In this document: positions 7,224 to 25,141 of the stretch, in pieces
How positions within the stretch are numbered: the stretch's first letter is position 1
Layout of the letters: every line of letters begins with the position of its first letter
NCBI GenBank assembly: GCA_044344255.1
Contig: JBIJDH010000006.1
Location: 224,001 to 288,000, forward strand
Direction of reading: 5' to 3'
DNA from: Myxococcota bacterium
Lineage (GTDB): Bacteria; Myxococcota_A; UBA796; UBA2385
Length of the DNA stretch: 64,000 nt
Made by a program: the position numbers and the translations under genes
The notes under the pieces: model-generated
What the model was told of the DNA's origin: nothing
Database searches by the model: none
The model's input: the letters and a program-made list of their open reading frames with translations, nothing else

Positions 7224-8323
<1,100 letters not shown>

Positions 8324-10435: not shown

Positions 10436-11407
10436 ATGACGACCCAACCCGAGAACGATCCCCGCAGCGCGCGGGTCCTCCGCATGTACCGCTGGTTCCT
10501 GTCCGGCCGGAAGGGCAAGACCGCTGAGGTCGCGGCCCATTGCGCCGCCGGAGACAAACGGAAGGCCCTCGCCGATCTGAAGCTCCTCGTGGACGAAGGC
10601 GCGATCGTCGCGCGGGGGGAGGGGGTAGACCGCATCTACGAGCTCCCGAGCACGACGCTCCCCCGGGAGCTCGATCTGCACGACGCCATCGCCCTCCTCC
10701 TCGGCAAGCAGGTCACCTCCTTCCTCGGCGGGGTGGGCCTCAACACCGTCTTCGAGCGCCTCGCCTTTGACCGCAGCCTCGACGTGCGGCGGCGCAGCCA
10801 CTTCGAGGGCAAGTTCATCTGTCTGCACGAGCCGGTTCGCGTGTACGACGAGCTTGCGGCGGCGGTGCTGCCCACGCTCGTGTGCGCCCTCATCGAGGAG
10901 CGGGCCGTGGAGCTCGACTATCGGCACAGCGGCGGCGAGATCGAGACCCTCCGTCACTTCCAGCCCCTCTCCCTCGCCCTCTATCGGCGGGGGATCTACA
11001 TCCTCGGGCGCTGCCCGGGGGAGCGCGCCCACCGCAGCCTCGCGCTCGAGCGCTTCGGTCGGGTTGTCCTCGGCGAAGCGGTCGAGTACCCGGCCGGCTG
11101 GGACCCGCAGCGCGTCCTCCGCCAGACCTTCGGGGTCTGGACGGATGGGCCCGTCGAGCGCGTCCGGCTGCGTTTCCCCGCGGCCCGGGCGCACCTCGTC
11201 TGGGCGCGAGAGTGGGTCGTCGGCCAGGTGATCACCGAGCTCCCGGAGGGCGGAGTCGAGCTCTGTTTTCAGGCGCGGGGAAAGGAGCTCGTGCGCTTCT
11301 GCCTGGAGTGGGGCCCGGCCGTGACCGTGATCGAGCCGGCTTGGCTGCGCGAGGCCGTGGTGGCGGAGCTGCGGGCTGCGCTCGCGAACTACCCCGGCGA
11401 GACCTGA
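10436..11407 (+). CDS. WYL-domain transcriptional regulator (HTH-WYL-WCX)
   Basis: N-terminal HTH-like region; WYL-like core ALIEERAVELDY..FQPLSLALYRRGIYILG..RSLALER; WCX-like tail ELVRFCLEWGPAVTVIEPAWLREAV. Confidence 0.9.
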   Translation: MTTQPENDPRSARVLRMYRWFLSGRKGKTAEVAAHCAAGDKRKALADLKLLVDEGAIVARGEGVDRIYELPSTTLPRELDLHDAIALLLGKQVTSFLGGVGLNTVFERLAFDRSLDVRRRSHFEGKFICLHEPVRVYDELAAAVLPTLVCALIEERAVELDYRHSGGEIETLRHFQPLSLALYRRGIYILGRCPGERAHRSLALERFGRVVLGEAVEYPAGWDPQRVLRQTFGVWTDGPVERVRLRFPAARAHLVWAREWVVGQVITELPEGGVELCFQARGKELVRFCLEWGPAVTVIEPAWLREAVVAELRAALANYPGET

Positions 11408-11686: not shown

Positions 11687-11775
11687 CAGTGGTGACCGCG
11701 CCTCCTGGTCGGGGCCTGATCTTCACCGAAGCTGCCTGGCCTCCATCCTTTCTGAGGTACACCTTGGAGAACTCG

Positions 11776-14166
11776 ATGATCTTCGAAGACTGGTTCAAAG
11801 CGGCCACGGGGAGTCCACCCTTCCCCTACCAGGCCGCCTTGGCGACCGGGGCCTCCCTTCCCCACCAGCTCTCGGTGCCCACCGGCCTCGGCAAGACCGC
11901 GGCCGTCGCCCTCGGGTGGCTGTGGCGGCGCCGCTTCGCAGGGGATCCCGCTCTGCGGGCCGCGACGCCCCGTCGCCTCGTCTATTGCCTGCCGGTGCGC
12001 AGCCTTGTCGAGCAGACCGAGCAGGCGCTGCGGGGCTGGCTGCGGAACCTGGGCGTCGAAGACGTCGCGGTGCACGCGCTCATGGGCGGCCGGGTCAGCG
12101 ACCCCTGGGATGAGACCCCCGCGGCGGACGCGGTGCTGATCGGCACACAAGACCAGCTCCTGAGCCGCGCGCTCAACCGCGGCTATGGGATGAGCCGCTT
12201 TCGCTGGCCCGTGCACTTCGCCTGGCTCCACAACGACGCCCTCTGGATCTTCGACGAGGTGCAGCTCATGGGCGTGGGCGCCTCGACCGGGGCCCAGCTT
12301 CAGGGGCTCCGGGACAAGCTCGGCACCGCGCGGCCCACGCACACGATGTGGGTGACCGCGACCCCCGCTCCGGCGCGCCTCGCCACCATCGACGCGGTGT
12401 GGCCCCTGCGGGCGTTGGGGCTCGGCGCGGGTGACCTCGCCCACCCGGTCGCCCTGGACCGCCTCGGGGCCCGGAAGCGCCTCTTGCGGATCGCGGCGGC
12501 GGAGCGGCTCGACCCTGCGCGCTGGCCGGCGCTGATCGCGGAGGCGGTCGTCCAGCACCGCGCGGCGGGAGAGCGCTGCCTCGTCGTGCTCAACCAGGTG
12601 GCCCGGGCCCAGGCGGTCTTCGAGCAGCTCCGCAAGCGGGGCGTGGAGGCCCGGCTCCTTCATTCTCGCTTCCGGGCCGGAGATCGGGCCCGCAGCCAGG
12701 CGGCGGCGCTCGATCCAGCCTACCGGGGGGTGATCGTCACCACCCAGGCGATTGAGGCCGGCGTCGACCTGTCTGCCGCGACCCTCCTCACCGAGGCCTG
12801 CCCCTGGTCCTCCTTCGTCCAGCGGGTCGGGCGCTGCAACCGGTATGGCGAGCACCCGCAGGCCACCGTGGTCTGGCTCGGCCTCCCCGCCGACGACAAG
12901 GTGTGCGCGCCCTACACGGCCGAGGAGCTCGCGCTGGCGGAGGTGAAGCTGGAGGGCTTGGAGGATGTCGGGCCCTCCTCCCTCGCCCATGTGCCGATGC
13001 CGGACGGCGAGCCCGCGCTGCCGGTGCTGCGACGGAGAGACCTGCTCGGCCTCTTTGACACCGAGGCCGACCTGTCGGGCCTCGATCTCGATGTCTCCGC
13101 CTATGTGAGAGACACGGAGGACGCCGACGTCTCCGTGGCCTGGCGGGCCTTCGACCCCGAGCGGGGGCCGAGCCCGGATGACCCCGCGCCCCACCAGGAT
13201 GAGCTCTGTCGGGTGCGCCTGAGCCGCTTGCGCGAGCTGCTGAAGCGGGCCACGGCCTGGCGCTGGAGCAGCCTCGAGGGCGAGTGGCTGGCGGCCGACA
13301 GCTTCCGGATCGCCCCCGGTCAGACGCTGCTCCTCTCCTGCGCCGCGGGCGGCTACGACGCGGCGCTCGGCTTCACGGGTGAGGCCGCCCACACGCCCGC
13401 GCCGGTCGATCGGCCCGGCCGAGCGATGGACCACGACGAGGCGGACGGGGCCGATCCCCTCAGCCACCTCGGGGCCTATGTGAGCCTCCGCGTCCACAGC
13501 GAGGACACCGCGGCGGCGATGGTGCGGCTCTCGGCTGCCCTCTCCGATTCAGCCACCACGCCCTGGGCCGAGCTCTGTCGCGCCGCGCGGTGGCATGACC
13601 TCGGCAAGGCCCACCCCGTCTTTCAGGAGATGCTGACCGCCGGGCTGCCCGAGGCCGACGCGCGGCGCGCGGAGGGGCCCTGGGCGAAGTCCGACGGGGT
13701 GAGCGGCGGGCGCAGCCGGCGCCCCCACTTCCGCCATGAGCTGGCCAGCGCCATCGCCTTCCTCGCGCAGGGGGCGACAGACCTCGAGGCCTACGTGGTC
13801 GCGGCCCACCACGGCAAGGCGCGCCTGACCATCCGCAGCCGGCCTACCGAGCGCCCGGTCGCGCGGCGCGGCAAGCCCCTGCTCGGCCTCCTCGACGGGG
13901 ACACCCTCCCCACCGTTGACCTCGGCGGCGGCGAGGTCAGCGCCGCGACCACGCTCAGCCTCGACCGCTTCGCGCTCGGCGGGGGGGCGGCGGCCCGGAG
14001 CTGGATGTCCCTCGGGCAGGGCCTGCTCGCCGCGCAGGGGCCCTTTCGCCTCGCCTGGGCGGAGGCCCTGCTGCGGGTCGCCGACTGGGAGGCCAGCCGC
14101 CTCCGAATGACCGGTGCGCTGGGGCCCACAGGGTCCGACCTCGATCGGGTTGGAGGTGCCAATTGA
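11776..14166 (+). CDS. cas3: Type I-G (I-U) Cas3 helicase-nuclease with C-terminal HD domain
   Basis: PFPYQ, PTGLGKT, DEVQ, TATP, LLHSRFR, TTQAIEAGVD, QRVGRCNR; C-terminal WHDLGKAHPVFQ..RHELAS..AAHHGK..RVADWEAS; ATG 11776 after GGAGA. Confidence 0.95.
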   Translation: MIFEDWFKAATGSPPFPYQAALATGASLPHQLSVPTGLGKTAAVALGWLWRRRFAGDPALRAATPRRLVYCLPVRSLVEQTEQALRGWLRNLGVEDVAVHALMGGRVSDPWDETPAADAVLIGTQDQLLSRALNRGYGMSRFRWPVHFAWLHNDALWIFDEVQLMGVGASTGAQLQGLRDKLGTARPTHTMWVTATPAPARLATIDAVWPLRALGLGAGDLAHPVALDRLGARKRLLRIAAAERLDPARWPALIAEAVVQHRAAGERCLVVLNQVARAQAVFEQLRKRGVEARLLHSRFRAGDRARSQAAALDPAYRGVIVTTQAIEAGVDLSAATLLTEACPWSSFVQRVGRCNRYGEHPQATVVWLGLPADDKVCAPYTAEELALAEVKLEGLEDVGPSSLAHVPMPDGEPALPVLRRRDLLGLFDTEADLSGLDLDVSAYVRDTEDADVSVAWRAFDPERGPSPDDPAPHQDELCRVRLSRLRELLKRATAWRWSSLEGEWLAADSFRIAPGQTLLLSCAAGGYDAALGFTGEAAHTPAPVDRPGRAMDHDEADGADPLSHLGAYVSLRVHSEDTAAAMVRLSAALSDSATTPWAELCRAARWHDLGKAHPVFQEMLTAGLPEADARRAEGPWAKSDGVSGGRSRRPHFRHELASAIAFLAQGATDLEAYVVAAHHGKARLTIRSRPTERPVARRGKPLLGLLDGDTLPTVDLGGGEVSAATTLSLDRFALGGGAAARSWMSLGQGLLAAQGPFRLAWAEALLRVADWEASRLRMTGALGPTGSDLDRVGGAN

Positions 14167-15302
14167 GCCTCGTCGTCCTGAGCGGCTGCCGCCCTGAGCC
14201 CCTCGCGGGCTACCTGAAGGCCCTGGGCGCCCTGCGCCTCGTCTCCGAGCAGGTCGATCCCGCCGCCCGCGGCGCCTGGGTGGGCGGGGTCTTCCACCTG
14301 GAGTCCACCCTCACCGAGGCGGGGCTGGTCGACTTCTTCGCCCGGCGCTACGCGCCCACCCCCGTGATCACGCCCTGGAACGGCGGATCGGGCTTCTGGC
14401 CGGGTGACAACCAGTCTGGGATCTCGCCGATCCGCGTGTCGGACAGCCCTCGTTTTGAGGCCTATCGGTCCGCGATCACCGTCGCGGAGGCCCACATCCG
14501 CCGCTCCGGCCTCGAGGAGCGCCCGGACAGCAAGCAGAAGACGGCCTTCGTGAGCCGCCTCCGGGCGACCCTGTCCGACGCCGTGCTCGCCTGGCTCGAC
14601 GCCGCCCTTGTCTTCAGCCGGGAGACGCTCGTCTTTCCGCCGCTGCTCGGCACCGGCGGGAATGACGGGCGGCTCGACTTCGCCAATAACTTCATGCAGC
14701 GGTTGTCCGAGGAGCTCCTCGCCCCCAATGCTACGCCAGAGGCTGCTCTCCGCGGCGCGCTCTTCGGCGGTCCGACGATGGGCCTCGGGGATGCGGCGAT
14801 TGGGCAGTTTTTTCCCTCTGCGGCTGGTGGTGCAAACTGCGGGCCTGGTTTCGAAGGGTCCGTCGGCACCAACCCCTGGGATTTCATCCTCCTTGTGGAA
14901 GGAGCCGTGTGCTTCGCAGCTGCGGTCGCTCGGAAGTGGGAGAGTGGATCACACTCGGCAATGGTGTTTCCCTTCTCGGTTCGGTCGACCGCTGCAGGAT
15001 TTGGCTCTGCCGCGGCTGGCGAGACCAAGTCGAAGGATGAGCTTTGGCTGCCGATTTGGTCGGCGCCTTCGACCTGGATGGAAGTGGCAACCGTCATTCG
15101 GGAGGGCAGGAGTCGTGTGGGGCGCCGACCGAGTGTTACCGGAGCTGACTTCGCGCGGTCTCTGGCTTCGCTGGGAGTGGACCGTGGAATCGCTTCTTTC
15201 TCTCGTTTCGCGTTTCACAAGAGAAATGGCGAGTCTTACCAAGCGGTTCCCCCCCACGGGATCCGGAACCGTTACATCAGCCGGGAACGGGCGTTATTTT
15301 AA
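14163..15302 (+). pseudogene. csx17: Type I-G large subunit Csx17/Cas8g, C-terminally truncated by IS at 15254
   Basis: GCRPEPLAGYLKALG, PTPVITPWNGGSGF, LLGTGGNDGRLDF, NPWDFILLVEG, ELWLPIW, RNGESYQAVP; last about 16 codons are read-through into the IS; family members are normally about twice this length. Confidence 0.88.
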
Positions 15303-17963
15303 CTTATCGACGAACTTGGGGCTGGTATCCTGGTCTTCGGCCCTCAGGAACGACAGCAGACCCTATCCGGCGATGGTCGGGCGGGACTATGCCTATTCGT
15401 GTGGCACTAGTTCTATAGGACAATCCTTTCGGAGATGAGCCGCAGACACACTTCTCCGAGGCCGGGCAGTTCCAGCCTGTTGAGAGACCCCGTCGACTCA
15501 GTTGCGAGGGACGGGTGGCGGACCGAAGGTGAAGCCCTGCCGTGGTCCCCCCAGCGTCGGCAGTCGGCTCCCCTTTCTCGCGGTCAGACAGACCGTGGCA
15601 TCGGGAGGGAGGGCGTAGCGTTCCAGCTTCTGACGGCGAGTCAGGCGTGCGTGGCGGCGCTCCTCATTGGTCGCGACATGGAGCGGGTGCCGCTTCTTCT
15701 CCTCCGTCGTGGTGACCGTGATCTCCACGTATATGTTCGCGGTGGTTCGACGCCAGACCTTTCGCGCTCGGGCGAGGTTATAGAACGGCCCAGAGGCCGC
15801 GTGTGGCCCTCCGTGGATCGTGTCGTCTGGGAGGGTGACCGGCATGACTCGGCGAGTCGGACGTCTCCTGGAGCGCTTCACCGGCGGATTCGCTCTCTTC
15901 CTCTCTTCGGCCCGTTCCTTGGTCCTCTCTGTGGCGCGTTCGGAGTGGACTGCGCGGAGGAGCGGCTCTAACGCCTGCGCATCCTCGGTGGGCACAGAGA
16001 TGGACTTCAGCTTGATCTGTTCCTCGTTTTCGGAGTCCAGACAGGTAGCTCGGACCGGACAGGTGGAGCAGGTGTTGGGCAGGGCGCGGAAGAGGATGTT
16101 GGCGTGCGGGCCGACTCGTATCGTGCTCGGGACCAGTCGCTGTCCGTTCGGGCATCGGAGGGCGCACTCTTCGGCCTGGAAGCTCCAGCCCGGGTGCCGA
16201 GCTTCCCACTTCGCCCATCCGAGCGTGGACAGGCCCTTGGCGAGGGCTCGCTCGGTTTCCGTCTGCGGACGGGGCGGTGCCGTTTGGATCTCTTGCGGCC
16301 TCGGCTCGGCGGCGGTGGTCTGTGGCGCATCGGGAGGGTGACCCTTCGGTTCGGACTCCGACGAGGGGAGAGGCTCCCAGCTCACGGGGCGCGGGTCCAC
16401 CTCGACCACTCGCGCGATGAAGGCGGTCATGTCCTTGTCCTTTGTGTGGAGGCGGACGCCCGCGGCGACTTGGTAGTTCCATACGAACAGGCCGGCGACC
16501 GAGGCGAGCTCCTGGCCGCCGTTCTGGTAGCTGAAGATCTGGTCGAGGCCGAGCTCGCGATCCTCCTGTGCGAATCGATTCTCGATGGTGCAACGCCCGA
16601 AGTAGAGCTGAACCAACTCGGGCGCGGGCCAAGCGGCCGGCTCGAGCCCGATGGAGACGAACAGCTCGTACTTCCAGCCGTTGATCAGGCGCCCGTGGTC
16701 GGCCTTGTCGGACTTCTTGCCCTTGCTGTCTTCCGCTCTCCAGGGGACGCGGGTGACCACCACGCGAGCCGTCACGGACGGGTAGGGCGAGCCATCGGCC
16801 CGCGACGATCCGTCGGCTGGGTGCAGCGTGATTATGCCGAGGTCGAGGGCCGACCGCTTCGGTCCGGAGCGACAGTCGGGGACGAACCGCCATTGTCCGT
16901 GAGTCATCCGCTCCCGAATGTCGGGCTGTTCGAGGAGCGTGTATCGGGACAGCCTGCTCACGCAGGGGACCCCAGCCTGCTGACAGGCGAACAGATCGGG
17001 TACGTTGCCGTACTCGCCGTCCATGCGCATGACGACGCGGTTCTTGGGGTGGTGGAGCTCCGTACACAGGAGCTCGACGGCCTGAAGTGCAGATGCGAGC
17101 TCCGCGGCCTTGTCGCCATTGCCGGGCGCGACGCGGGCGTCGAGCCAGACCCCGGCGTCGTGCTCCAGCGCCGAGCGGTGCACGACGATGTCACCGCGCT
17201 TTTGCCCGAGGTACCCTGGCTTGCCGAGCTCGAGGGCGCGCCGCCGAATGGGGTCGAGGTCCTCGCCCTCCTCCGGCGCGCGCTGCCGCAGCGCGGTGCG
17301 GGTCCCGTCGAAGCTGAGCGCGTGCCACGCTTCTCCCTGGGTATCCCGAAGCTGCGCCCACGGATGGCGCAAGACCTCGATGGCTCCACTGTGGACGAGG
17401 AGCAGGCGGTGGCAGGAGGCGCGAACCAGCTCGGGTGTCACGAGATCAAGCACCCTGGACAGAGGGGAGGTGCTCATCAGGCGCTTCCGGCCGGCCAGGG
17501 CGCCCAGCGCACGCCGAGCCTTGGACTCGCAGACCGCCTGGTAGACGTCCTTCAGACTGACGACGCCGTAGAGGAACCGCACCAGCAGAAAGATGAAGGC
17601 GTCTACCCCGTCGAATCCGCCCTGACGGACCACATGGAGCTCGACCGCCAGCACCGCGAACAGCCCTCGCTGCCGAAGGTCGGCGAGCACGCTCGCCGCG
17701 CCGGTGAGCTGGGGATGGAGCTCCGCCCGCTCCGTGCGCTTACCCTGGACATCAACCGCCGCTTCTGCCATGGTGGACCTCGCCGCTGTCGTCCCCTCCA
17801 TCGGTCGGTTTCTTTCATTTGGGGCCGAACGATGGGAGCCCAGGCCGACCTCGCCCGCCGAGGCCGCTCCCGGGACGACATCGGTCTACCATGCGAGCAA
17901 AGTGGGTCGCGCCGCGCGAAAGAATAGGGTAGAGGCGGGTATTGTTGGATCCGGATTCCGTGG
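15254..17963 (-). mobile_element. About 2.7-kb insertion sequence with 17-bp imperfect terminal inverted repeats, no target-site duplication
   Basis: Left ccacgggatccggaacc (15254-15270) versus reverse complement of right end ccacggaatccggatcc (17947-17963), 15/17 match; encloses one DDE transposase. Confidence 0.85.
15498..17801 (-). CDS. Large DDE transposase (767 aa; IS4-superfamily/IS1380-like, family uncertain)
   Basis: SFDGTR, VMRMDGEYG, LYFGRCTIENRF as candidate D-D-E triad; C-terminal CPNG..CSTCPVRATC and Arg-rich tail; start codon uncertain. Confidence 0.82.
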   Translation of the reverse strand: MEGTTAARSTMAEAAVDVQGKRTERAELHPQLTGAASVLADLRQRGLFAVLAVELHVVRQGGFDGVDAFIFLLVRFLYGVVSLKDVYQAVCESKARRALGALAGRKRLMSTSPLSRVLDLVTPELVRASCHRLLLVHSGAIEVLRHPWAQLRDTQGEAWHALSFDGTRTALRQRAPEEGEDLDPIRRRALELGKPGYLGQKRGDIVVHRSALEHDAGVWLDARVAPGNGDKAAELASALQAVELLCTELHHPKNRVVMRMDGEYGNVPDLFACQQAGVPCVSRLSRYTLLEQPDIRERMTHGQWRFVPDCRSGPKRSALDLGIITLHPADGSSRADGSPYPSVTARVVVTRVPWRAEDSKGKKSDKADHGRLINGWKYELFVSIGLEPAAWPAPELVQLYFGRCTIENRFAQEDRELGLDQIFSYQNGGQELASVAGLFVWNYQVAAGVRLHTKDKDMTAFIARVVEVDPRPVSWEPLPSSESEPKGHPPDAPQTTAAEPRPQEIQTAPPRPQTETERALAKGLSTLGWAKWEARHPGWSFQAEECALRCPNGQRLVPSTIRVGPHANILFRALPNTCSTCPVRATCLDSENEEQIKLKSISVPTEDAQALEPLLRAVHSERATERTKERAEERKRANPPVKRSRRRPTRRVMPVTLPDDTIHGGPHAASGPFYNLARARKVWRRTTANIYVEITVTTTEEKKRHPLHVATNEERRHARLTRRQKLERYALPPDATVCLTARKGSRLPTLGGPRQGFTFGPPPVPRN

Positions 17964-19539
17964 TATTCCCGGCGGTAGACGCCGGGCCCCATTGAAGCAC
18001 GGGCAGGTCACAGGTCTTAGCCGCGCGCTTCACTGCCCATTCCCGGCGGTAGACGCCGGGCCCCATTGAAGCGCCGTCGCTTCGTTCACCAGTCACCCCC
18101 AGCACCTACCATTCCCGGCGGTAGACGCCGGGCCCCATTGAAGCCCGGCCCGGGCCCGGTCTGCCCACTTGCCGGCCCTGCGCCCATTCCCGGCGGTAGA
18201 CGCCGGGCCCCATTGAAGCAACCACTTATCATTAAAATAAAAAAAAGTATTCACCATTCCCGGCGGTAGACGCCGGGCCCCATTGAAGCCGGTTCAGGGG
18301 ACCGACGTTCACGATCTCGATCCCGATCCATTCCCGGCGGTAGACGCCGGGCCCCATTGAAGCGACGTTGGAGCGGGGCCCCGATCGTCGTAGCGCTCTG
18401 ACCATTCCCGGCGGTAGACGCCGGGCCCCATTGAAGCGTCCGGTCGTAGAAGCGCCAGACGGTGACCCAGCGGTCCCCATTCCCGGCGGTAGACGCCGGG
18501 CCCCATTGAAGCAGGCCCTTCTTCTGGTCGGACCATACGGCCCGCGCCAGCCCATTCCCGGCGGTAGACGCCGGGCCCCATTGATGCCTCACGACATGTT
18601 TGTGGGTAAGCTTCGGCCTGGCGACCCATTCCCGGCGGTAGACGCCGGGCCCCATTGAAGCGGGATGACGATTACCGTCTTCTGCATTTTCTAAATGCCC
18701 ATTCCCGGCGGTAGACGCCGGGCCCCATTGAAGCGGAAAGAAAGTTTCAGAAATAGCTAGAACATTAGGAACCCATTCCCGGCGGTAGACGCCGGGCCCC
18801 ATTGAAGCGCGGCGATGCGGTCGACCAGGAGCGACTCCACCTGGGCCCATTCCCGGCGGTAGACGCCGGGCCCCATTGAAGCGCCGGGCAGGTCTTGACC
18901 ATCACTGGGCTCGGCGAGCCCATTCCCGGCGGTAGACGCCGGGCCCCATTGAAGCATCGCATCGAACAGCCCCTTGACCGCCTTCTCCGCGTGCCCAATT
19001 CCCGGCGGTAGACGCCGGGCCCCATTGAAGCAAGGGGCAACGGAAGGTGCGCCCTGAGAATCTCGCGGCTCCCATTCCCGGCGGTAGACGCCGGGCCCCA
19101 TTGAAGCTATCGCTCTATCACTCTATCGCTTGCGGCCCCCCATTCCCGGCGGTAGACGCCGGGCCCCATTGAAGCTGCGGGGCCCTCGCCGGGCTTCTCA
19201 TCCGGTACGGGCTCCCCATTTTCGGCGGTAGACGCCGGGCCCCATTGAAGCAAGGCCCGCGCCGCTCGGATGTCGGTGAATCGCCCGACCCATTCCCGGC
19301 GGTAGACGCCGGGCCCCATTGAAGCCGGGGGCCGCCCTTCCCTCCGGGGACGGTCCAGTGGTGCTCATTCCCGGCGGTAGACGCCGGGCCCCATTGAAGC
19401 TCCCGGATCATCAACCCCTTCGGCAGCTCGCCGACGGTGCCCATTCCCGGCGGTAGACGCCGTGCCCCATTGAAGCGTGAGATCCTCCGGAGACAGCGCC
19501 GCGATCATGCGGCACCCCATTCCCGGCGGTAGACGCCGG
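17963..19539 (+). CRISPR. CRISPR array: 21 full 36-bp repeats plus 1 truncated repeat, 21 spacers (32-40 nt)
   Basis: Consensus CCATTCCCGGCGGTAGACGCCGGGCCCCATTGAAGC with 7-bp stem CCCGGCG/CGCCGGG; 3' ATTGAAGC fits type I-G and + orientation; variant repeats mostly toward the right end. Confidence 0.99.
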
Positions 19540-19550
19540 AGGGTTATCGG

Positions 19551-19703
19551 ATGAAGGTTCATTCAGATATTGATAGACCCTCTCGATGGGGTATCGGTAC
19601 TGATCGAAATATTCGTATCAAGGAAACAGGTTGGACAACAGAAGACCGCTTGATTCTTGCGGTCAATCTGCGACGATTTCAGAGTCGAATTGACAGCCTG
19701 TGA
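19551..19703 (+). CDS. Possible small low-GC protein (50 aa)
   Basis: ATG 8 nt after GGAGG (19538-19542); MKVHSDIDRPSRWGIGTDRNIRIKETGWTTEDRLILAVNLRRFQSRIDSL; no recognised family. Confidence 0.25.
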   Translation: MKVHSDIDRPSRWGIGTDRNIRIKETGWTTEDRLILAVNLRRFQSRIDSL

Positions 19704-19781
19704 CGAGGATCAGCCCGCCAGAGAGGCGTGTCTGAGCCTCCCGACCCTGTCGTCGAGGTCCCGGAGTCCCCCTTGTAGCGG

Positions 19782-21525
19782 TCACAAGGGTGGGGAGCCG
19801 AGGGCCTGAAGGTGCGAGACGACATCGACGCCGCGGAGGTGGCCGCCGAGGTCCTGGGCTCCCCAAGCCTGGACATGGGCGACCAGGCAGATCAGGGAGC
19901 CGAGGACCGCGACGACGGCCTCTCTTCGAGACGCGCGGCGAAGGAGGCGCTGGAGGCGGCTGTTGAATCGCTCGACCGAGGTTCGCTCATTGTAGTGGTA
20001 AGTTGTAGTCGAGCTTCCACGCCTCTGAGTCACGGGGTGGGCTTCCGGTGAGGCGGAAGTCCTCGGTCGCGCGAGTGTGGGCCAGCGGTCCCATCACGGA
20101 GTCGGGCTCACAGAGCCTGTGCAGCGGGCAGTCGTCGAGGTGCACCTTGAACGTGTATCGGCCGTCGGTGTGCGTGGGCCGCTTACAAGGGCAGTTGAAG
20201 GTGGTTTGCTGGTACCTGGCGTCCCAGCCATGCAGGCGCATCTTCGCCCCACCCGGGCAGTTGGGGTAACCGTTGATGTCCAGATCGAGGGAGCTGGCGA
20301 CCGTGGCGATGTCTGTAGGGTTCGCCAAGGGAATCCGGGGCTGGATGTCGAGCTCATGAAGGAGCTCATAGACCGGGATGGCGTCATATCCCCTGTCCGC
20401 GGTGAGCTTCTCGAGCCGGAGGCCCCCTGTGTCGTTGTTCTTCTCCTTTTCATTACGGTGATACCCGACGAAGTCGCAGATGAGGTCAATTCCCATCAGG
20501 ACATCGGGGATGTGGGCGGGGCAGGTCTCCAACCACAGGGGCAGCTCGTGATGTTCCGAGCGAGCGACCAGGAGCTGACCTCGAAAGCCGAAGGTCCAGC
20601 TGTTGTCGCTGGCGGAGCGCCCCCAGCGCGCGGTGGGCTCTGCGTAGAGGAGAGGAATGGATTTGGAGGGAACCAGCACGCCATCTTCGCCCCGCGGCCG
20701 GGGAGGGGATCCCGGGGGTCTGCGACCATCACCGCTGGCCTGGGAGGCGATGAGGGTGCCGTCGATCGCCCCGAATGCGAGCTCGGTGATGAGCTCACGG
20801 CGGAGCGACGGCGCCACACCTGCACGGCTGAGGATGACGTTCAACCGCGGGGATGCGCGCGGCAGGGGGCTGGAGTTCAAGGAGAGGAGCTGTGCATCCA
20901 GGTGCGCTCGGGCCGCTCCGGTGCCCTCGCGGCTCTCGTCGCTCTCCTGGGCAAGGGTTCGGAGGAAGGATGCGCGACGATGTTGGCGCTCGGCACGCTT
21001 CCGTTCGAGGCCCGTGCGCATGCCGGCGTCACTCGGGGGGCTCGTTCCGGAAGCAGGCGCGGACCTGGCCGGAGGCTCGTGCGCGGGGTCGCCCTCCAGG
21101 GCGCCGGTTGCCTCCGACTGCGCGCGTCCCAGGACCTGCGACCGATCCGCCGCTCTCAGTCGGTAGATGAAGCTGTACAGGGTGGCCACTCCGGGTGGCG
21201 AGTGCCCTTCCGGGATCCCACAAGCTCTGCATAGAGCTGGGCTCTTCTGGAGTTCAAGGACCCATCGGTTGATCCCGTGGTGGCCGAGCGCTTCCATCGT
21301 CATGAGCACCTGGAGCTTGACCACCGGCTCCAGCATCGGCTTGCCACCATGATGGTCCTCTCGGTACAGCCCGGTGAGGAGCGGGCGCACCTGCTCCGGG
21401 TCGTAGGAGGGGAGACCGGCAAAGTAGGTGGGTGCCTGATCAAGGGCGGGGGCCCCCAAGCCCAGCAGGGAAGCCACAGAGGGCGCGTTTGCGGCGTGAG
21501 TCTCAGGGGGGTGTGGCTCCCACAT
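19782..21525 (-). pseudogene. Frameshifted DDE transposase (IS4/IS5/IS1182-like clan)
   Basis: AIDGT, ARWG..WTFGF, TADRGYD, CPGG motifs in 19987-21525; catalytic YNERTSVERFNSRL lies in another frame (19782-20033) after a 13-bp insertion at about 19990-20009; element ends not resolved. Confidence 0.85.
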
Positions 21526-21576
21526 GGAGCGAAGCGCTCACACCGCCTGCCAGGTGCCCCCTGCGGCGCTCCGGCG

Positions 21577-21685
21577 TCCCCCTCCGCCGCCGATGCGGCG
21601 GCACCTCCCCCATAGGATGGGGGAGGCTGAAGCCGCAGTTGTTCCTGCATCTGCCTCCCTCATCCGAAGGGGGAGGTGGCGCTCC
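21577..21685. repeat. REP-like palindromic doublet
   Basis: ccccctccgccgccgatgcggcggcacctcccccataggatgggggagg followed by cctccctcatccgaagggggagg; related in inverted orientation to 7940-8007. Confidence 0.7.
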
Positions 21686-21990
21686 CTGTCGGGCGCCCGG
21701 CGCGGGAGGGGGACCCCTGGAGGCGAACGATATGGCTCCGCTCAACGACAGATCCACACCCGGTCACGCCAGGCGTACGAGGGCCCCCCCGCGGTCAAAG
21801 AGCGCAAGGGCCTGCCCTCCGGCACCTGCCGCCAGTCCAGGGCGCAGGACCCACTCACGACGCCGGTCTGGCGCCCATGTCCTCATGCCTTTCTGGCCCC
21901 GTGCCGCTCAGAGGAGCGAAGCGCCCCCTCAACCGGAGCGGATGAACCCGGAGCCACACGCCCCAGACCGCTCTTCGACCCTGGCTCCGC

Positions 21991-23550
21991 TCAGGCGCCG
22001 CGGAGGTGCAGCACCCGGCCGTCTACCTCCAGCTCCTCCGCCCAGAGGCGCTCCTCCCAGCTCTTCCCGGCGCGCTGGTCGAAGATCCAGAGCCAGCCCT
22101 CTCGGAGGCCGTGGGTGTCGAGGTAGCCGGAGAGCTGCTGCACCCCGTCCTGCTTCACCTTCTCGAAGCGATAGCCGCCGTCAAAGACACGCTTCAGCTC
22201 GATGGCGTGGCGTTCGCCCCGATATTCGACGAGGAGGTCTATCCGGCCGCGACCGGCGGCGTACTCTCGGGTGATGGTGCCGCCGCCATTGACCACCTTC
22301 TGAAGGAAGGCCATGAGCGCGATGTGCGGGACGGCCTCGAGGTAGCCGCGGTCTGCGCTCCGCTCGACCATCTCGGCGTTCTCGCGCCACCAGGCGGTGA
22401 AGGCCAGGCTGAGGGCGGGCAGGTCGAGGCCGCCTGCTGCGGTCTTCCAGGGCCACCAGGGCAGGGGGAGGTTCTCCTGTTCGTTGAGGGTCAACTGGCG
22501 GGCGAGGACCTCGCGATAGAGCGGGTTCGCCATCTCGGCGCCATGGGCGCGTTGAATCACCAGACCGAGATCGAGGCAGTACTGGAAGCCGTCGGTGTCG
22601 GTTTCGATGTCTCCGTCACCGAGGAGGATTCGCTGGAGGACGGCGGCGACTCGCTCCTCTCGGAGTCGCTCGGCGAGCGAGTCAAGGTGGGTGGTGCGGG
22701 AGGGCATGAGGCGGTCCACGGCTCGGTCTACCTCGACCGCGGTGATGGGCAGGTCGCGGTCGGGGTCCCGCTCGGACACGCAGAGATGGGCGATGGCGTT
22801 GGTGAGGAAGGGCTGGCCATGCCCCCAGTGGAAGATCCGCTCGACGGCGCGGGGATGGAATTCCTGTCCGGTCTCTTCGGTGTGCTGCGACAGGAGCGCA
22901 GCGACCTCGGCCTCGTTGAAATTGCGCAGCGTGAGAGGCTCCGCTGTAATATTGAAGGGAGTGCGCGGGTAGACCCGGCCGCTGCGGCTGGCCTTCGTCT
23001 GAATGACGCGCGGGTCTCTCATGCCGATGAGGCCGACGGTGACGGGGAAGGCGCCCGGCCTGCGGCCGACGAAGCCGTCGCGGAGCTGACTGAGCAGGCT
23101 CACGAGGGCGGGGCCGCTCACCACGTCGGCCTCGTCGAGGAGGAGCACCACCGGGCGCGGCGTCGAAGCGGCCCAGGCCTGGAGGTACGCGAAGAGGCGT
23201 CCGCCGGGGCTCTGTGGGAGGAAGGGCTCCGCGGGCGGCGGCCGGTCACCTTCCGGGAGCACCTGGGCCCGGTGGGCGATGGACTCTATCCAGAGGGGCT
23301 CGGCGGAGCCGGTGTCCTCGACGCCCTGGCTCCGCTCCAGGCTGGCCCAGACCGCCGCGTAGCCGGCCGCGCGGAGGCGCTCGGCGAAGGCGCGCATCGC
23401 CGTGGTCTTGCCCGTCTGCCGCGGCGCGTGGACCACGAAGTACTGCTCGCGCTCGACATACGGGAGGAGCTCCGGCAGGCGGGCCTCGGCGGGGAGCATG
23501 TAGTGCCGCCTGGGGTCGCAGGGGCCGGTGGTGTTGAAGAAGCGGCGCAT
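21991..23550 (-). CDS. AAA-type ATPase fused to C-terminal PD-(D/E)XK nuclease-like domain, paralog 1
   Basis: FFNTTGPC, HAPRQTGKTT (Walker A), LLLDEAD (Walker B), ANPLYRE, REYAAGRGRIDLLVEY..AIELK. Confidence 0.88.
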   Translation of the reverse strand: MRRFFNTTGPCDPRRHYMLPAEARLPELLPYVEREQYFVVHAPRQTGKTTAMRAFAERLRAAGYAAVWASLERSQGVEDTGSAEPLWIESIAHRAQVLPEGDRPPPAEPFLPQSPGGRLFAYLQAWAASTPRPVVLLLDEADVVSGPALVSLLSQLRDGFVGRRPGAFPVTVGLIGMRDPRVIQTKASRSGRVYPRTPFNITAEPLTLRNFNEAEVAALLSQHTEETGQEFHPRAVERIFHWGHGQPFLTNAIAHLCVSERDPDRDLPITAVEVDRAVDRLMPSRTTHLDSLAERLREERVAAVLQRILLGDGDIETDTDGFQYCLDLGLVIQRAHGAEMANPLYREVLARQLTLNEQENLPLPWWPWKTAAGGLDLPALSLAFTAWWRENAEMVERSADRGYLEAVPHIALMAFLQKVVNGGGTITREYAAGRGRIDLLVEYRGERHAIELKRVFDGGYRFEKVKQDGVQQLSGYLDTHGLREGWLWIFDQRAGKSWEERLWAEELEVDGRVLHLRGA

Positions 23551-23572
23551 CGGCACGGGCTAACCCGGCCGC

Positions 23573-25141
23573 TCAGGCGCCGCGGAGGTGCAGCATCCGG
23601 CCGTCTACCTCGAGCTCCTCGGCCCAAAGGCGCTCCTCCCAGGTGCGGCCTTCGCGTTGGTCGAAGATCAGGAGCCAGCCGTGTCTCTCGCCGACGGTGT
23701 CGAGGTACCGACAGAGCTGCCGAACGCCGGCCTCTCGGACCCGCGCGGGCGCGTCGTGCGCGGGCCGCACCCGCTTGAGCTCGATGACGTGCCGCTCGCC
23801 GCAGTACTCGACGAGGAGGTCTATTGCCCCGCGGGCGCCGGCGAACTCGCGGGTGACCCGGCCGCCGCCGTTGACCACCTTCTGGAGGAAGGCCATGAAC
23901 GTGATGTGGGGGAGGGCCTCGAGGTAGCCTCGGTCTGCGCGGCGCTCCAGCATCTCGGCGTTCTCGCGCCACCAGGTGAGGAAGGCGGCGATGAGCACCG
24001 GCATGTCGAGGCCACCCTGCGCCGTCTTCCAGGGCCACCAGGCCTCGGGCAGGACGGCCAGCGTGGGCCCCAGCAGGGCCCGAATGAAGAGCTCTCGATA
24101 GAGGGGATTGGCGATCTCGGCCTTGTGGGCTCCGTGCTGCCCCAGCCCAATGCCGACGACCTGGTCAAAGTCTGCGCCAGAATAGTCGAGGGTCTGATCG
24201 CCGAGGAGGAGGGCCTGCAGAACCGGGGCGACCGCGGGCCGCCAGAGCCAATCGGTGACGGAGAGGCGGGCGCCGTCTTCGGCCTGAAGGATGTCTTCGA
24301 CGGCCCGGTCGATACAGGCGGCGGTGATCGAGAGGGTCCGGACCGGTGTGATCTTCTGGGTCACTCGGTCGGCGAGCAGGTCGGTGAGGGCCGCCTGACC
24401 CTGCCCCCAGTGGTAGACCCGTTCGGCGGCCTCTGGCGTGAAGGGCTGCCCTGTCTCCCGGTGGTGCTGGTCGAGGAGCTCCCTCACCTCTTTCGGCGTG
24501 AAGGGCCGAATGGACAAGGTGTCCGCCCGAATATTAAAGGCGTCGACCGCGCTGAAGGGCGCCCCCTGCCGATCGTGGGCCCTGTAGTGGGAGAGGTCAA
24601 GCTCCCCGATCAGGGCGAGGCACACGGGGAATCTCCCAGGTCCGCGGTCCATGAAGCCAGCGCGGAGCTGAGCCAGCAGGCTCAGGAGCGCGGGGCCACC
24701 GACCCCGTCCGCGTCGTCCAGGAAGAGCACCACCGCGCGCGGCGCGACGGCAGCGCTCCAGCGCATCAAGTAGGACCGGAGCCGGGTGCCGGCGGTGTGG
24801 CCGGTCCAAGGTGCAGCAGAGGGCGGTCGCAGGGGCTCATCGAGCTCCGCTCCGCCGTCGTGAATCGCGTTCAGCCAGAGCATCTCCGCGGAGGCGGTCT
24901 CGTCTATCCCTCGCGCCGCCGCCAAGGACACGCACAGGGCCACCGTGCCTGCGGCGCGGAGCTCCTCCGCGAAGGCGCGCATCGCCGTGGTCTTGCCGGT
25001 CTGTCGGGCGGCGTGAACCACGAAGTAGAGCTGCTGCTCGACGAAGGGGAGGAGGTCCGGCAGCCGGGCTCGCGGCGGCAGCATGTAGTGCCGGGCGGGG
25101 TCGCAGGGGCCGGTGGTGTTGAAGAAACGAGGCATGGGCAT
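23573..25141 (-). CDS. AAA-type ATPase fused to C-terminal PD-(D/E)XK nuclease-like domain, paralog 2
   Basis: FFNTTGPC, HAARQTGKTT, LFLDDAD, ANPLYRE, REFAGARGAIDLLVEY..VIELK. Confidence 0.88.
   Translation of the reverse strand: MPMPRFFNTTGPCDPARHYMLPPRARLPDLLPFVEQQLYFVVHAARQTGKTTAMRAFAEELRAAGTVALCVSLAAARGIDETASAEMLWLNAIHDGGAELDEPLRPPSAAPWTGHTAGTRLRSYLMRWSAAVAPRAVVLFLDDADGVGGPALLSLLAQLRAGFMDRGPGRFPVCLALIGELDLSHYRAHDRQGAPFSAVDAFNIRADTLSIRPFTPKEVRELLDQHHRETGQPFTPEAAERVYHWGQGQAALTDLLADRVTQKITPVRTLSITAACIDRAVEDILQAEDGARLSVTDWLWRPAVAPVLQALLLGDQTLDYSGADFDQVVGIGLGQHGAHKAEIANPLYRELFIRALLGPTLAVLPEAWWPWKTAQGGLDMPVLIAAFLTWWRENAEMLERRADRGYLEALPHITFMAFLQKVVNGGGRVTREFAGARGAIDLLVEYCGERHVIELKRVRPAHDAPARVREAGVRQLCRYLDTVGERHGWLLIFDQREGRTWEERLWAEELEVDGRMLHLRGA

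Follow-up and report, generated by a model that had tools for sequence, protein, structure and literature searches.

Insertion sequences (ISs) are known to break CRISPR (clusters of regularly interspaced short palindromic repeats) loci. The Mycobacterium tuberculosis locus described in PMC7708916 holds the start of csm6, IS6110 and a partial repeat, and all of its deletions into flanking genes are bordered by IS6110. Natural IS insertions in cas loci, 28 in number, are listed in PMC10359306, and in the Xanthomonas citri array one repeat and one spacer are reported to carry IS21-family insertions (PMC6889575). Here we analyze a 64,000-nt stretch of the genome of a Myxococcota bacterium (the window; contig JBIJDH010000006.1, positions 224,001 to 288,000), in which one element, IS-A, stands between the 5' half of the type I-G gene cas8g (cas8g1/csx17) and what is left of a CRISPR array, while a second element, IS-B, cuts the far end of the array.

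The arrangement resembles that left by IS6110, an IS3-family element, in M. tuberculosis: a truncated cas gene, a single IS, a partial repeat and the rest of the array follow one another, and the deletion on the cas side is bordered by the IS. The published M. tuberculosis case differs in being type III-A and in having yielded two-copy intermediates, with recombination inferred, whereas no such intermediate was seen here; moreover, both array ends are cut here, by two unrelated ISs. The reported insertions in cas genes and in X. citri likewise inactivate CRISPR-Cas and enter repeats as well as spacers, but as described they are mostly simple, with both flanks kept, whereas here a multi-gene deletion accompanies the IS.

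We conclude that IS-A very probably inserted into the type I-G locus and that a one-sided deletion of ~5.8 kb followed. The upstream part of the operon is in place, with a type I-G cas3g whose HD domain lies at residues 597-804. The cas8g profile match, by contrast with the full-length open reading frames (ORFs) of relatives (737-776 aa), ends in the middle of the model, the sequence stopping at ...RNGESYQAVP; IS-A begins after codon 363 of about 720 plus one base, and the reading frame continues 16 codons into the element up to a stop at 15302. On the other side the array resumes at 17965, the third position of the repeat, or the fourth should the repeat be 37 nt long, a possibility raised by the 17 of 21 spacers that end in C. 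The relative G005 retains the intact order cas3-cas8g-323-aa ORF-530-aa ORF-cas4-1 (550 aa)-cas2 (98 aa)-leader (~206 bp)-array of 46 repeats. Its 323-aa and 530-aa ORFs are read by us as probable csb1/cas7 and csb2 from position, size and start motifs, not from a hidden Markov model (HMM). From the equivalent cas8g residue to the first repeat, G005 spans 5,821 bp, in the place of which the window has one element. Profile searches of the assembly returned no match to cas1 or cas2 (the cas4-1 and cas2 adaptation genes), with positive controls detected; csb1/cas7 and csb2 are absent from the locus by direct reading and gave no match in the assembly, but in searches whose positive controls were silent.

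The preliminary description of this DNA, made from the sequence alone, had already placed the break of csx17 at RNGESYQAVP, with an IS carrying inverted repeats next to it, and had seen no target duplication, all of which holds. It also located the IS correctly beside csx17 and the array, although its left end starts one csx17 base later and its right end lies at 17964. Its account of the missing cas genes and leader stands in that none of cas1, cas2, csb1 and csb2 was found, with the reservation just given for the last two. The coordinates of all features are collected in Table 1.

Table 1. Features of the broken type I-G locus and its surroundings, in window coordinates
Feature	Position	Strand	Remarks
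cas8g1/csx17, 5' half	14163..15252	+	363 codons; TIGR04113 positions 2-365 of 718
IS-A	15253..17964	-	2,712 bp; IS1380-like DDE element; single copy in assembly; no target duplication
IS-A inverted repeat, downstream of transposase	15253..15270	+	
IS-A transposase	15498..17801	-	767 aa; likely start at residue 11
IS-A inverted repeat, upstream of transposase	17947..17964	-	terminal base A, family usually C
Type I-G CRISPR array	17965..19538	+	22 repeat units, 21 spacers, no leader
Spacer 10	18662..18697	+	match in a single AT-rich contig (run X2), 5' flank ends in TTT
IS-B relic	19539..21525	-	one end motif at 19539; transposase 19987-21525; tail frame 19782-20033
cas3g, type I-G helicase	11689..14166	+	C-terminal HD domain; 825-aa open frame; TIGR02621 727 bits, cut-off 400
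WYL/WCX-domain regulator gene	10436..11407	+	upstream of cas3; PF13280, PF25583 above cut-off
REP-like dispersed palindromic repeats	21574..21690	.	beside truncated side of IS-B; many copies elsewhere in genome

Contig C74, which contains the window, belongs to an 8.18-Mb, metagenome-type draft assembly (71% GC, 83 contigs, 95% complete). Two distant IS copies could have been merged in such a draft, with the missing cas genes on another contig, an arrangement that the preliminary description had itself proposed to look for. It is not the case in this assembly: IS-A is single-copy by blastn and tblastn, with only remote traces elsewhere (a distant IS-A remnant on C20, a lone end on C16), and the rest of cas8g was not found, nor were cas1 and cas2. 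The stretch is present in 20 public runs, four of which were compared, as contigs rather than reads; one of them may be the source of the assembly. The junction between cas8g and IS-A is spanned by a single contig with 0 differences in all four, and in run X1 the path from cas3 across IS-A into a repeat lies on one contig (6,727 bp, flat depth of 14). At the junction between IS-A and the repeat, contigs of X5 and X7 reach into the repeat by 30 nt, a borderline length, and X2 breaks there; the junction between the last repeat and IS-B is crossed in X1, X2 and X5. No loose end was found at either end of IS-A among those listed. A merging of two copies would find some support in the depth of run X2, which rises to 39 vs 27 over 15701-17965 and points to another copy, a partial copy or a close variant of IS-A in that sample. 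Taken with the unbroken X1 contig, we judge such a merging very unlikely and conclude that the junction is not an assembly collapse. The near-zero depth over spacers 2-19 in the compared runs reflects contig filtering and is no evidence of loss. The X1 contig joins repeat 1 to repeat 20 (17964-19367), skipping 19 repeat-spacer units, which may be a looped-out variant or array contraction, or a simplification of the assembler's graph.

IS-A has terminal inverted repeats that match at 15 of 18 positions and encodes a transposase with 209 homologs, mostly annotated as "hypothetical"; most of those listed are 33-43% identical to it. Residues D165, D261 and E407 are invariant across 26 aligned transposases (alignment A1) and probably form the catalytic Asp-Asp-Glu (DDE) triad. 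The IS1380 model is the best HMM match for all 26 homologs (E 1.8e-17 for the best), and among named predicted structures PF13701 comes closest (TM 0.76 by target, an Atlas model match), consistent with the DDE_Tnp_1_4-like fold of the IS1380 family. The window transposase itself scores 29.9 bits against NF033539 (IS1380), for which the cut-off is 180, and matches IS1182 HMMs weakly as well, as does the Cys-rich C-terminal part. The IS1380 elements ISEc9/ISEcp1, as described in PMC12116815, share with this group a single DDE transposase and 4-5-bp target duplications, the latter seen in the family but absent at IS-A. They differ in that transposases of the IS-A group are ~680-770 aa long vs a 419-position model and have the extra Cys-rich C-terminal part. 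IS-A works in the manner of an IS1380-type element, but the failed HMM test keeps us from counting it as a member.

The boundaries of IS-A rest on 131 distinct family ends recovered from 93 homolog loci, some of them redundant. The base before the conserved CCAC is C in 115 and A in 12 of these ends, so the terminus is one base longer than earlier assumed. Target duplications were surveyed in 54 two-ended copies, of which 9 were dropped for short flanks and one pair (L078) is probably mis-paired: 4-5-bp duplications occur in 13/45, and 32/45 share 0-3 bases. In the complete genome G042 a 4-5-bp duplication is kept in 8 of 20 pairs and missing in 12 (pairs hand-picked from the listed matches). 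Since duplications are often missing across the family, their absence at IS-A is the usual state. We rejected ISEcp1-type capture of adjacent DNA as its cause, no repeat remnant being present elsewhere in the genome, and a mosaic origin of IS-A, from which the 97% variant P0001 differs evenly along the length with no sign of a crossover. A metagenome scan with the IS-A transposase gave 102 pattern matches and 0 relatives, in a collection from which near records may be missing. In a distant group of genomes (G041-G043 and G045, loci L166-L185), the IS-A-type end motif occurs 21-99 times per genome; many of these copies are 180-370-bp non-autonomous elements, and more than half of the examined pairs lack a target duplication.

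The deletion very probably arose in two steps. An IS1380-like element would first have entered a dispensable type I-G locus, in cas8g or in a repeat, and would then have deleted the 3' half of cas8g, csb1/cas7, csb2, cas4-1 and cas2, together with the leader and some number of repeats. Intramolecular transposition (adjacent deletion), in which one end of the IS attacks a site close by, would be the likely route, and recombination between two neighbouring copies in direct orientation a less likely one. Recombination and adjacent deletion are described as frequent causes of missing target duplications (PMC11708052). Both routes leave one IS with unrelated flanks, and we somewhat favour the intramolecular route because the assembly contains no other copy, which is a matter of judgement. 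The same end state is predicted by a one-step capture of IS-A during repair of a chromosome break, perhaps one caused by self-targeting, with no prior insertion, as proposed by Ngan et al. (PMC11708052). None of the 21 remaining spacers matches the genome beyond chance level (best ungapped matches 21-29 of 31-39 nt), and no selective cause is therefore shown; spacers that went with the deletion are outside this view. The capture mechanism is itself a proposal, and we find this route quite unlikely. Insertion followed by deletion, as the preferred account, would have left a system unable to process CRISPR RNA (crRNA), to interfere or to adapt, and an array that is a relic: Csb2 processes crRNA and Cas7 forms the backbone in type I-G (PMC9638904), and both are missing along with Cas1/2. 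The claim of the preliminary description that a transposon drove the loss of the CRISPR system is thereby supported, in the form of a deletion knocking out type I-G. A literature search found no paper on IS adjacent deletion inactivating a CRISPR array, nor on three of the family end sequences, with most subscription journals outside its coverage.

The surviving array is the only one found by a de novo CRISPR scan of the assembly. Its first repeat unit lacks 2-3 nt at the 5' end and its last lacks 14 nt at the 3' end. The repeat has the same 3' end as in the intact I-G loci L102 and L198, where it points away from cas2, which fits a leader lost on the IS-A side. Hairpin-forming repeats with this 3' end agree with type I-G, as does a TTN protospacer-adjacent motif (PAM), here read from one protospacer; TTN is the type I-G PAM reported in PMC9638904. 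That protospacer, matched by spacer 10, has a TTT flank and, as a single case, supports the + strand as crRNA sense. The AT-rich contig that carries it is probably a phage once targeted by the lost system. Comparison of the spacers with annotated phages gave no match. An Rfam search gave 0 matches, and a promoter scan at the junction between IS-A and the array gave 0 predictions.

Where exactly IS-A ends bears on how it came to lie there. Spacer acquisition and casposon insertion, the Cas1-type integrations, take place at the leader-repeat boundary, duplicate the target repeat and use a Cas1-family integrase. The preliminary description had placed the right end of IS-A at the repeat boundary (17962/17963), suggested that this could be the leader junction used by Cas1-Cas2 and raised the possibility that the element targets CRISPR repeats. 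The family terminus instead puts the end 2-3 nt inside the repeat, and the end is not at a leader boundary; no copy of the repeat flanks the other end of the IS, there is no duplication, and the enzyme is an ordinary DDE transposase whose intact triad explains the ends. The repeat at the junction is the first one left, and nothing marks it as the original first repeat. Because about half of the array DNA is repeat (36 of ~74 nt per unit), an end readily falls in a repeat, and whichever repeat survives becomes the "first". Targeting of the leader-repeat junction, whether by Cas1-Cas2 or by specific recognition of CRISPR repeats, could draw on the position of the IS-A end near the 5' edge of the repeat, on the leader side, and on a second case (L075, below) that lies likewise on the leader side. 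The junction there is 5 nt inside the repeat, again with no repeat duplicated on the far side, the two repeats hit are of unrelated types, and 223 of 224 family ends lie outside arrays. We regard such targeting as extremely unlikely and largely refuted.

Whether the family favours CRISPR repeats was examined in ends whose outer flank measured at least 220 nt; the window and L075 served as positive controls. The ends are not independent, as one insertion can contribute two. In the set drawn from the genome collection and relatives, 1 of 69 ends lies in an array (88 found, 19 too short). IS-rich genomes within the phylum contributed 90 ends (91 after a strong-end filter) and a distant subgroup 65, none of them in an array, which makes a total of 1/224. 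The exception, L075 (5058-5935, genome G044), is a single homologous IS, one end of which coincides with the 5' foot of the repeat hairpin in the first remaining repeat of an orphan type I-E array. It lacks a target duplication. The 15 repeats are all found to one side of it, with nothing of the array on the other, the same geometry as in the window; the sole cas1 of G044 belongs to a separate I-G locus. Pattern scans added no further junction. A scan of 401 genomes of the phylum gave ~150 end matches in 12 IS-rich genomes (hand-summed; reversed-pattern controls 0-3 each). Nineteen stood beside an ATTGAA-type motif, none of them in an array, with a pattern that does not match the window's own variant end; nine stood beside an I-E hairpin, the only real junction being L075, and two of these nine, on the minus strand, had no transposase match. 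A metagenome scan for a I-G repeat end next to an IS end returned 26 stretches with 0 transposase matches, and the listed ones lie inside repeats or ordinary spacers. Some type I-G repeats (L219, L220, L227) contain a stretch that resembles the IS end, which explains most chance pattern matches.

Several observations weigh against reading the locus as an ordinary insertion and deletion. No ancestral intact allele was seen, and the csb1 and csb2 searches lack a working positive control. L075 repeats the arrangement, although chance would predict 0.04-0.22 array ends among 224 if arrays make up 0.02-0.1% of the DNA, and all three junctions seen between an IS and a repeat fall within ~3 nt of a hairpin foot. 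The expectation would be higher if arrays tolerate insertion, and as evidence of repeat targeting we hold the L075 hit to be suggestive at most.

The L075 case would also fit a weak family preference for palindromic repeats of the REP (repetitive extragenic palindromic) type, with CRISPR hairpins as incidental targets hit above random DNA. REP-targeting ISs are known (PMC1525189), and some IS-A relatives resemble those described there in lying repeatedly beside a REP-like motif. A purine/pyrimidine-run motif of this kind occurs within 30 nt of 8/8 ends in G237, 5/9 in G416 and 3/3 in G402, vs 1, 1 and 0 in controls (pooled, 16/20 ends vs 2/20 control windows), with a motif chosen after the flanks had been seen. 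Of the empty sites that could be rebuilt, 2/13 fold strongly. The family differs from the described REP-targeting ISs in showing no overall hairpin preference, and the other end of IS-A lies in plain coding sequence. Ends within 5 nt of a hairpin foot number 7/225 vs ~2% in controls (p=0.16), the folding energy of flanks does not differ from that of controls (p 0.5-0.66), folding at empty sites gives p=0.18, and neither the 401 genomes nor the metagenome collection held a new junction. We therefore consider this preference unlikely. A broader proposal, in which this unclassified IS1380-like group recognises palindromic repeats (REP-like in some lineages), enters CRISPR hairpin feet above chance and goes on to remove the leader side by adjacent deletion, serving as a recurrent off-switch for CRISPR, appears improbable to us; under it, the window and L075 would count as two independent examples. 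Some IS-A-family lineages do have target preferences, but most insertions are not at one class of repeat or hairpin; apart from L075 they show no preference for repeats, and repeat targeting by the IS-A family, as floated in the preliminary description, is not supported. In the literature we found nothing on an IS target preference for CRISPR repeats or hairpins except a casposon paper, in a search to which the same limit of coverage applies.

Two side observations concern these flanks. At L140, L146, L139 and L314-L328 (genomes G237, G416 and G402), insertions recur ~8-14 nt from the REP-like motif. In G136 (L269-L286), a C-run plus pyrimidines precedes most ends and may belong to a longer repeated element.

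The trailer end of the array would have been cut independently of IS-A, by IS-B, an event that the preliminary description overlooked. IS-B interrupts the last repeat after 22 nt (19538/19539), where the repeat hairpin has its 3' foot. According to the alignment, a 13-nt insertion, with a 7-nt direct repeat, shifts the reading frame of the IS-B transposase; homologs carry DDE_Tnp_1/DUF772, and HMM matches to IS1182 and IS5 are weak (24-26 bits, under the cut-offs). One homolog locus, L333, has the same end motif, and a second, upstream end of IS-B was not found in the search for it. IS-B is unrelated to IS-A.

REP-like repeats also occur between the WYL gene and cas3, as they do beyond IS-B. 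A partial cas3 copy of 48 codons, 90% identical, lies at 8177-8320, 3.5 kb upstream, directly after REP-like repeats. Downstream of the array (21991-25141) are two tandem paralogous genes for an AAA-ATPase with a PD-(D/E)XK nuclease, as assigned by domain search for the first gene; the pair is possibly further defence-island content.

We conclude that the locus is one more natural IS-driven loss of immunity, a known and well-documented kind of CRISPR decay. Four studies, dated 2020 to 2025, have lake runs in which the broken junction is found without change, so the lineage lives on without its type I-G system. A preference for repeats, if true, would offer a selfish element a direct way of disarming the immunity of its host, but the data make this unlikely. 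The case draws attention to an IS1380-like group that is widespread, for the most part unannotated, and marked by long transposases and short non-autonomous derivatives.

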